From positions 88,474,001 to 88,538,000 of the forward strand of contig NC_079166.1 in NCBI RefSeq assembly GCF_947568905.1: a DNA stretch of 64,000 bases, in the 5' to 3' direction. The translations under genes and the position numbers were made by a program. A model generated the notes under the pieces. The model was not told where the DNA came from, made no database searches, and saw only the letters and a list, made by a program, of their open reading frames with translations. Within the stretch, counting starts at the first letter, position 1; the number at the start of each line of letters is the position of its first letter. The DNA comes from Ostrea edulis (taxonomy: Eukaryota). Positions 27,166 through 29,062 of this stretch are shown here, in pieces.

Positions 27166-29062
27166 TTACTTAGGGGATCGCCAGGCTAGCATCTGTTCTG
27201 ACCTTTCCCGTTTGAGCTCTGTCTTACAGAGTTTCTTACAATGGAACTGCCTGACTCGACACTTCTTTCCACATTTCATGTAATTATCTTTGTACAAGAT
27301 AAACACCGTGTTTGTGCGGCAACTGCGCATGCATCTTATTGAGTCAATTAGACAGCTAGTCTGGCATCGATAAAAGCTAAACTTCTGACGGTGGAAGTTA
27401 ATGATGCGGTTCACCTTCTTGGTTATTTTAGAGACGGTGCTGACGGCTGAGGGTTTGGGTTGCGTTGGTGGTTTCTCCGGAGGCGTCACCGCTGGAGGCT
27501 CATCAATGCTAGCAATGGGGGTTGGCTCTGGAGCTTGTGTCGTGGGAACTGGAGCTTGTGTCGTGGGAACGACTGCACCAGAAGCGGAAGTCGAGACGGT
27601 AGCGTTTTGGTTTGACAAAAAGTCTGCAATGGGGGAATAGCCTCCACTCAATGGTGAGGAGACCACGGGCTTGGATATAACTAGGGACACAGAGGATGCT
27701 GAATTTGATAGAGACGCAGCTGCTGGTGTGGTCGAAACGAATGAAGAAGAAGAAGCTGCATTAGAAGGAACATTAGACACATCTGTTACAACGCTGGCAG
27801 AAGACTTTGCGTTGGCTTTTGAAAGAGCCCCATAAGAAAAGGTCGGAGATTTTGCCACAGCCTTTGGACTGAACGGAAGTCCACTTGAAAATACCTCAGA
27901 TGCAGACGAAATTGTGTTTGTCGCCGACTGTGCCGTGGAGACTGAGGAACCTGTATTAGAGGAAACCTCTGAGGCTGAAATCAAAACGTTGGATGCAGCA
28001 GAATTTGTTTTCTCTGGTGATGACGCAGATTCAGTCGCCAGAACAACGGAGGAAGTCTCCACGGGTCCGTTGTTTAATGAAGATGTGTCTGCAGAAAGAA
28101 TTTCCGGTTTTAAGGTGGAAGATGGAAGAGATGAGGCTGTCCGTGGTGTGGTCTTTTCTGACGGCTGTGGTGTTTCCTCGGTCTTTTGAATCACTTCCGG
28201 ATCCGTTTCTTCGCTGCTGTCGTCAGCGGATATCGGAATAGTGCAGGAGAGAAAGAGAACAGCACAGACGACTAGAAACTTCATTGCCTCCTGGAGAAAA
28301 ATGGAAAAGACAATCTTAAACATAAAGACGATGGACCCCAGTCGATTTGTGACACGGAAATTCTTAGACCATTTGACCATCGTTTGTATTTTGTATCTAA
28401 TTCTTTGTCTCCTCAAACGCTATGGTGGATGACCAAAAAAACTTAACGAATAAGTTCTCTAGTGACACATAGATCTGCAGAGAAATTTTAGTGTTTTACT
28501 AATACTGTAGACGTACAAATTAAATCTGTATATGCTCTGTATGAATGGTTAAAGTCTTCTAAAAGAATCTTTAAAATGATATATAATCATGTCACTTCGG
28601 GTTTTTTAAAATTTAAATCATTATGATACTTTGTCTAAAATACAAAAAAGTGTAAACAAAAAAAAAAAACAAAAAAAAAAAACAAACAAACAAAAAAAAA
28701 CTGTTGAAACATTCCATAGATATCAAAATCTTGTCTTCAGTTTTTTTCGCGGTGTTACTAATAAATATTCTAATAACATCTTTCAAGGATGGAAAAGCGT
28801 TCACTTTGCACTCTAAAACTGACTTAAAACTTTTTTTAAAAAATAGATAAATAAAAGAACACAGAATACAAAAATTAAATAATTAATAAATTCTGAAACA
28901 TATCAGCTGCTGTTGATTACTATAGATATACATGTGAAATAAAACTGAATTTGTCCCATCGTTGTGTCGATTCATCTACGATTTGATACAAAAAACTTAC
29001 TTTCTATATACATGTGTTGTAGCATATGACTATGGCAGTTGCTAAGAGAACAGACTTACCAT
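27166..29062 (-). CDS. Secreted Ser/Thr/Pro-rich protein with N-terminal DDSSEE and C-terminal 8-Cys domain (paralog A), about 375 aa
   Basis: The ATG ends exon 1 (29062-29060, AAAATG|GTAAG). Acceptor TTTTCTCCAG| precedes exon 2 (28290-27166), in frame: MEAMKFLVVCAVLFLSCTIPISA-DDSSEE...low-complexity linker...CQTSCLIDSIRCMRSC-x15-CGKKCRVRQFHCKKLC. The second ATG at 28284 is an alternative start. A clear paralog lies at 45117-45901. Confidence 0.88.

Follow-up and report, generated by a model that had tools for sequence, protein, structure and literature searches.

A tandem pair of oyster genes encodes predicted secreted proteins with a predicted helical hairpin of an undescribed disulfide-laddered type

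The products of two genes of Ostrea edulis, here called A and B, share a predicted helical hairpin with a disulfide ladder, a genuine oyster variant of this fold that has not been described before. It is set apart by the greater length of its conserved domain and by a setting of multiple module genes, and its function can only be inferred. Both genes lie in a 64,000-nucleotide stretch of genomic DNA (the window). Six-frame reading of the window revealed the cysteine pattern CX3CX6CX3C-X15-CX3CX6CX3C in two minus-strand ORFs, with cores at positions 27226-27366 (A) and 45171-45311 (B); the full pattern did not occur in any of 100 shuffles of the window. An earlier note on this DNA described a signal peptide, the string ADDSSEE, a basic segment and eight identically spaced cysteines as common to the pair, and all of these are present in both proteins, the signal peptide in the form of a signal-like hydrophobic N-terminus. 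The A and B products are predicted, from their sequences, to be secreted. Coordinates of gene parts and protein regions, as well as of related genes elsewhere in the genome, are collected in Table 1.

Table 1. Features of genes A and B (window positions) and of module genes elsewhere in the same genome
Feature	Position	Strand	Details
Gene A	27166-29062	-	375 aa; ATG, intron, everything else in exon 2
Gene A start codon, last 3 bases of exon 1	29060..29062	-	Donor ATG/GTAAGT; spliced joint in run X1
Gene A TATA-like element (predicted)	29138..29145	-	TATTAAAA, ~75 nt 5' of ATG; putative
Gene A intron	28291..29059	-	769 nt, GT..AG, phase 0; sequence and run X1 joint
Gene A exon 2 coding part incl. 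stop	27166..28290	-	374 codons; ORF reading
Gene A candidate poly(A) signal (predicted)	26840..26845	-	ATTAAA; putative
Gene A predicted signal peptide, residues 2-23	28225..28290	-	Kyte-Doolittle 11-residue maximum 3.0 at residue 6; putative cleavage after Ala
Gene A DDSSEE, predicted mature N-terminus	28207..28224	-	Two S-x-E sites; sequence, with S-x-E consensus as given in PMC10454625
Gene A mucin-like linker	27451..28224	-	258 aa, 57% S/T/P/A, net -10; composition
Gene A cationic hairpin domain, conserved	27169..27450	-	94 aa, net +19; alignment and model; core 27226-27366
Gene B	45117-45895	-	178 aa; ATG, intron, everything else in exon 2
Gene B start codon, last 3 bases of exon 1	45893..45895	-	Donor ATG/GTAAGC; relatives' starts MDCVKYL/MDYVKYL
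Gene B TATA box (predicted)	45979..45988	-	TATATATAAG; putative
Gene B intron	45651..45892	-	242 nt, GT..AG, phase 0; sequence only
Gene B exon 2 coding part incl. stop	45117..45650	-	177 codons; ORF reading
Gene B candidate poly(A) signal (predicted)	44760..44765	-	ATTAAA; putative
Gene B predicted signal peptide, residues 2-22	45588..45650	-	Kyte-Doolittle maximum 2.7 at residue 9; putative cleavage
Gene B DDSSEE, predicted mature N-terminus	45570..45587	-	Sequence
Gene B acidic linker	45396..45587	-	64 aa, net -11; composition
Gene B cationic hairpin domain, conserved	45120..45395	-	92 aa, net +19; core 45171-45311; predicted helices 2-47 and 54-91
Module cluster	G000:C3:18.9-19.4 Mb		5 genes: L075, L019, L035, L025, L039 (18.89 and 19.33-19.39 Mb)
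Module cluster	G000:C3:42.88-43.05 Mb		13 intact and one broken ORF: L024, L049, L050, L059-L065, L071, L074, L089-L091
Single module gene	L009:1366-1815 (G000:C9:59.34 Mb)		Order opposite to A/B: cationic hairpin, then acidic tail

In both genes the ATG ends exon 1 and the remainder of the coding sequence forms exon 2, the arrangement that had been proposed. Gene B had been assigned the span 45117-45901; the gene is present, and its upper bound is now corrected to the ATG at 45893-45895. The intron of gene A is joined exactly (28289 to 29059, with CT..AC ends) in one contig of sequencing run X1, at a depth of 2.8 and with 30 letters on the short side. That run X1 is RNA is a guess; its coverage consists essentially of exon sequence and repeats only, and none of the runs containing A or B sequence is recorded as RNA. 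The existence of spliced transcripts is thus borne out for A, in putative RNA, and no joint was seen for B in the sequencing runs aligned to the window. The proteins of relatives begin with MDCVKYL, MDYVKYL, METMKLL or MRTMKLL, and these starts require the same ATG-then-intron splice; unspliced read-throughs, e.g., LLQDCVKYL, coexist with them.

The linker between the signal peptide and the hairpin domain is 64-77 aa long in B-type proteins (net charge -9 to -15) and 258-455 aa long in A-type proteins. The disparity, previously put at four- to five-fold, is real and amounts to four-fold when measured in the O. edulis pair (258 versus 64 aa). In 101 family proteins, a highly redundant set with 18 distinct cores, the X3 and X15 spacing is kept and the mature part contains exactly eight cysteines without exception, while an acidic S-x-E lies within the first four mature residues of 99, the other two being truncated. 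The A and B linkers cannot be aligned, yet the S-x-E after the signal peptide is kept in both.

The domain itself carries a net charge of +16 to +21 in 14 of 14 sequences. Its release by cleavage at basic sites, as suggested in the earlier note, is doubtful, since none of these 14 sequences has a KR, RR or furin-type site upstream of C1 and since the “basic segment” coincides with the first, invariant stretch of helix 1, with the invariant KK positioned inside that helix. Neuropeptide-type dibasic sites or an amidation signal common to all family proteins were likewise not found.

The 50-residue cysteine domain described earlier is present as a core, and the conserved unit around it comprises about 90 aa, from approximately 25 residues before C1 to approximately 15 after C8. 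Over 13 sequences representing both paralogues, 27 of 92 columns are invariant; 19 of these are non-cysteine positions and seven precede C1. Domain identity is 78-95% among A orthologues, 67-91% among B orthologues and 51-60% between A and B. Compared with run X1, all three listed differences in the B domain are synonymous and seven of nine in the B linker are nonsynonymous, the numbers being small. A Trp/Arg polymorphism is present in the B domain at window position 45188 (Trp in the window, Arg in run X3 and P0003).

AlphaFold2 models the domain as one long two-helix hairpin (helices 2-47 and 54-91, pLDDT 85.6). Cysteines 29/33/40/44 and 60/64/71/75 are located on one face of each helix, and the positions of each mirror pair sum to 104, which in the model is the geometry of a nested ladder. 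The predicted pairing is thus C1-C8, C2-C7, C3-C6 and C4-C5; the hairpin, the mirror geometry and the paired cysteine losses in sibling modules (see below) agree with what the earlier note anticipated, the bonds themselves being a prediction. A conserved hydrophobic stripe on helix 1 (residues 6/9/13/16/17/24/27/34/35/38) is turned ~140-150 degrees away from the face with the cysteines when plotted on an ideal wheel of 100 degrees per residue, and supercoiling would move it toward the hairpin interface. The 19 invariant non-cysteine positions point to a dedicated binding surface instead of a generically cationic face. Together with the exposed stripe, they suggest that there is a definite partner, for which a second hairpin would be the simplest candidate.

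A search of the O. edulis genome retrieved one copy each of A and B. Out of eight further weak matches to domain A, only the one on C9 (E 0.095) is a true module, with a signal peptide and a 13-residue loop; four are fragments of a single interspersed repeat ORF and three are unrelated. Own-genome searches and the analysis of ~0.65 Mb of flanking DNA added 19 intact ORFs and a broken one, each of which carries between one and five modules. Including A and B, there are at least 21 module genes, a number that is a lower bound. Genes of the 42.88-43.05 Mb cluster code for proteins that are predicted to be secreted and have two to five modules; one of these proteins is labeled “uncharacterized membrane protein-like” by NCBI. 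Those at 18.89 and 19.33-19.39 Mb contain one N-terminal module each, followed in two cases by long T/P/Q-rich tails and in one by a Lys/Arg-rich tail. Pfam searches with 18 sibling ORFs returned sub-threshold or low-complexity matches only. One sibling ORF is identical to a protein assigned by NCBI to Ostrea edulis.

We collected 37 modules from the 21 genes, 35 by a module finder, from whose output three off-register rows (two in L024 and one in L061) were dropped, and two by eye. The spacing is exact in 25 modules; in seven, C8 is shifted, and five lack two cysteines. In each of these five the missing residues form a mirror pair, either C2 and C7 (L024 module 5, L090 and L091) or C3 and C6 (L061 and L075). 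By chance, one in seven random pairs would be a mirror pair, and the five cases represent two to four independent events. Loss of a single cysteine was not observed in intact genes and is present in the broken gene L050. The mirror-pair losses therefore provide independent support for the ladder pairing, which is valid for A and B if the fold is shared.

The net charge of sibling modules varies from +8 to -11, and it follows that the module serves as a scaffold of general use, with no inherent role as a cationic effector; several modules are embedded in low-complexity T/P/Q or acidic stretches. A sibling with two modules is predicted to form a zigzag of hairpins (pLDDT 88.5). Judging by sequence, common descent of A and B with the 19 siblings is plausible. 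They have the same spacing, an hhalign probability of 57.5% with a pairwise E of 1e-4, and a non-cysteine similarity of z 2.0. An ATG/GTRAG donor followed by the M/(D or E) structure is found within 0.4-1.1 kb in four siblings, against a background of 0.025-0.05 per kb, and all four belong to the 18.89/19.33-19.39 Mb group. Such a donor is present within 6 kb in 6 of 19 siblings, and a phase-0 acceptor at the signal start in 13 of 19. A match of the sibling profile to Evasin-3 (E 0.004) spans the junction of two modules and was rejected as a coincidence of cysteine spacing.

Word-seeded searches produced nine B-type and eight A-type clusters. The named clusters are Saccostrea and Crassostrea virginica proteins annotated as “uncharacterized” or “mucin-2-like”; no C. 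gigas accession is found among the named A/B relatives. When a HMMER profile of 13 domains was run against 1.84 billion representatives, four matches were obtained at E<=0.001, all of them known A/B proteins. At this sensitivity the A/B pair thus appears oyster-restricted, with remote relatives below the threshold possible. In S. cucullata, A and B have consecutive accessions on each of two contigs, which implies that the tandem pair is old. A scan of metagenome contigs gave 125 pattern matches, none of which was confirmed.

The earlier note recognized no named family, and our searches agree with it. Pfam returned no family for A or B. PDB sequences gave no family match (one match with domain B and seven at E<=10 with the A/B profile, 1VIB in neither), and the ESM Atlas gave no match, although an empty result there carries no weight. 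Foldseek returned nothing at E<=0.001 for either model. In the VIA structure comparison the best Z scores, 9.4 and 9.2, were to generic helical hairpins and are within the helical-bundle background.

A structural parallel is nemertean neurotoxin B-IV, described as a 55-residue hairpin with four disulfides (PMC6410017). Its spacing, quoted in the earlier note as CX3CX6CX2C-X10-CX3CX6CX3C, agrees with the 1VIB sequence. B-IV and the beta-nemertides (Cerebratulus, Lineus; 1VIB) resemble A and B in having eight cysteines, a two-helix ladder hairpin (predicted for A and B) and a cationic character, and the half-motifs of B-IV and the module are near-identical. However, B-IV has X2 and X10 where A and B have X3 and X15, and, unlike B-IV, A and B possess a ~90-aa domain with long helical extensions, within a precursor of 178 or 375 aa that has no release site. 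The A/B profile did not match B-IV at E<=10, and 1VIB is absent among the structural matches listed for the A/B model. With a sibling module model, 1VIB aligned over all 55 residues (rmsd 3.2, 29% identity) with a Z of 4.4, which is background for helical hairpins, and it was a weak match (E 0.21) of the sibling alignment profile. The fold thus resembles neurotoxin B-IV, but membership in the B-IV family is not supported. One can expect a toxin-like ion-channel effector related to B-IV to share such a ladder and to produce sibling matches of this kind; given the different spacing, the silent A/B profile, a background-level Z, the lack of a predicted free small peptide, and slow evolution and a single copy, we regard this explanation as very improbable.

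The alpha-hairpinins, or vicilin-buried peptides, share CXXXC motifs, antiparallel helices and a ladder, but they are described as having two disulfides and four cysteines and as being excised by asparaginyl endopeptidases from plant seed precursors (10.1101/2020.05.26.118075), whereas A and B are oyster proteins with eight cysteines; the sibling profile matched alpha-hairpinins weakly (E 0.05 and 0.34). Turgencins, antimicrobials of ascidians, are likewise cationic marine invertebrate helix-loop-helix peptides with a nested C1-C6/C2-C5/C3-C4 ladder; compared by description, they differ in having six cysteines and short amidated mature forms (PMC7024374), while A and B have eight and no shared amidation signal. 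KRMP-3 of Pinctada fucata is a small secreted bivalve matrix protein that has, like A and B, a basic domain and a low-complexity region; its Lys/Trp-rich region directly after the signal peptide and its Gly/Tyr chitin-binding tail are lacking in A and B (PMC4498902; PMC3896809). The KRMP-3 cationic region is reported to inhibit CaCO3 precipitation, and chitin binding is ascribed to the Gly/Tyr region and not to the basic domain (PMC4498902). By the spacing and sequence comparisons, then, A and B are not assignable to B-IV, hairpinins, turgencins or KRMP. The cysteine spacing of KRMP may resemble the inner ladder.

Tissue evidence for the pair comes solely from presence in one gill list, for which a low filter of 10 reads was applied. 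The 41,899 transcripts of this list include both C. virginica B orthologues, not differentially expressed, and both are absent from two gonad lists of the same study, whose authors mention possible mantle carry-over into gill samples (PMC12040131). The row of LOC111101195 in the gill list adjoins that of LOC111101194, annotated as uncharacterized (PMC12040131 S1), which may be the C. virginica A orthologue. Searches of main texts for A/B accessions and peptide strings retrieved no papers. Peptide and accession terms retrieved no shell, cement or mucus proteomic record from the supplements PMC13144384, PMC9498863, PMC13070813, PMC11813985, PMC10543319 and PMC5854119; some of these six sets may lack sequences altogether or be restricted to genes with differential expression, so absence from shell or haemocytes cannot be deduced from them.

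The toxin-like and gonadal-pheromone readings of the earlier note are both weakened by the strongly conserved, single-copy orthologues and by the absence from the gonad lists (PMC12040131). More generally, A and B could be a signaling ligand that serves as a neuroendocrine or water-borne cue and engages a receptor through its invariant surface; the active form might be an A-B heterodimer. The pair is kept adjacent in Saccostrea, and the invariant surface residues would suit such a role. Among molluscs, Aplysia attractin is a helical disulfide hairpin that acts as a cue. The gonad lists, the missing dibasic and amidation signals, the long mucin-like linker of A and conservation across genera, which counts against species-specific cues, make a ligand unlikely in our view. 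A and B likely function in mucus or in secretions on the shell side, and probably are not toxins.

Our preferred explanation, which we hold tentatively and at somewhat less than an even chance, is that A and B are secreted and stay intact as matrix or mucus proteins, in which the hairpin, predicted to be rigid, serves for assembly or binding as a node that carries an acidic, probably phosphorylated tail. Both products would remain whole in pallial (gill and mantle) secretions. Fam20C would phosphorylate the N-terminal DDSSEE and create a calcium- or mineral-binding end, by analogy with that of statherin. The helix 1 stripe would let one hairpin pack onto a second, in A-B or self pairs, and polyanions such as acidic glycans or phosphoproteins would attach to the basic faces. 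In gill and mantle secretions the proteins would then act as cross-linking nodes, with a short spacer in B and a long, mucin-like one in A.

The invariant columns, which describe a specific surface, the S-x-E retained between linkers that do not align, and the lack of a convertase site upstream of C1 all favor this explanation, as do acidic sibling modules, several of them flanked by low-complexity stretches. The gill presence and gonad absence of the C. virginica B orthologues point in the same direction (PMC12040131), and KRMP-3 offers a precedent for a basic bivalve matrix region that acts on CaCO3 (PMC4498902). Statherin, which starts with DSSEEKF and is a Fam20C substrate, resembles A and B in its mature N-terminal DSSEE, two independent S-x-E sites and a basic segment further on (PMC10454625), and Fam20C is reported to be mantle-enriched in bivalves (PMC5824888). 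Statherin is, however, a cysteine-free mammalian protein of 43 aa, and the likeness is a five-residue motif that would be convergent. S-x-E is also common in acidic secreted proteins, and its conservation may partly reflect a signal-peptidase-site constraint. Against intact matrix proteins also stand the single low-filter gill list, the lack of a shell, cement or mucus record in the supplements checked by term, the possibility that supercoiling turns the stripe toward the hairpin interface, and the fact that a receptor ligand is equally compatible with strong surface conservation.

In B, a signal is followed by an acidic spacer and a cationic amphipathic helix, an order that textbooks equally give for precursors of antimicrobials. 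A and B may accordingly be mucosal antimicrobial precursors, in which a cationic amphipathic hairpin is shielded by the acidic linker until a non-convertase protease frees it to attack microbial membranes on gill and mantle. The high domain charge, the hydrophobic moment of 0.40 for helix 1 residues 5-28 and the negative B spacer would all fit. So would the gill expression (PMC12040131) and the membership of the antimicrobials turgencins (PMC7024374) and MiAMP2 (10.1101/2020.05.26.118075) among ladder-type hairpins. Yet the only dibasic candidate is the in-helix KK, 19 non-cysteine positions are invariant, many sibling modules are acidic, and the A linker appears too long for a simple pro-piece. 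Oyster antimicrobial families are multi-copy and fast-evolving, while A and B are present in one copy each and diverge slowly. Taken together, we consider antimicrobial precursors doubtful, but worth keeping in view.

Extending the preferred explanation of intact matrix or mucus proteins, one may speculate that an undescribed ladder-hairpin scaffold has expanded to at least 21 secreted genes in true oysters, and that A and B assemble into a hetero-oligomeric node, its tails phosphorylated like that of statherin, which organizes an extracellular material specific to oysters, be it cement, foliated or chalky calcite, or pallial mucus, in convergence with a vertebrate mineral-control motif; this we consider quite unlikely. 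The components of larval oyster adhesive are still unknown (PMC6337334). Many uncharacterized secreted proteins are found in oyster cement and shell proteomes, and the present analysis defines an unannotated family for which a fold is predicted and evolution offers a read-out of the disulfide pairing, and in which one pair is unusually conserved. Whether matrix node, mucosal antimicrobial or ligand, the pair offers small expressible domains for assays, and a long, modular branch outside venoms would be added to a fold class whose known representatives are mostly short toxins and antimicrobials.

Between A and B, no Pfam-detectable gene was present among the scanned ORFs; the interval contains a 37-bp minisatellite with ~99 copies (39949-43433). 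Elsewhere in the window, a C-type lectin exon lies on the plus strand at 22447-22749 (Pfam Lectin_C E 7e-4, below the cut-off). A bHLH coding stretch is located at 53065-53511 on the plus strand (Pfam HLH E 2e-12), with a possible further exon, without a Pfam match, at 54776-55222. Other repeat arrays are numerous in the window, e.g., at 12991-15266 and 11056-12106.
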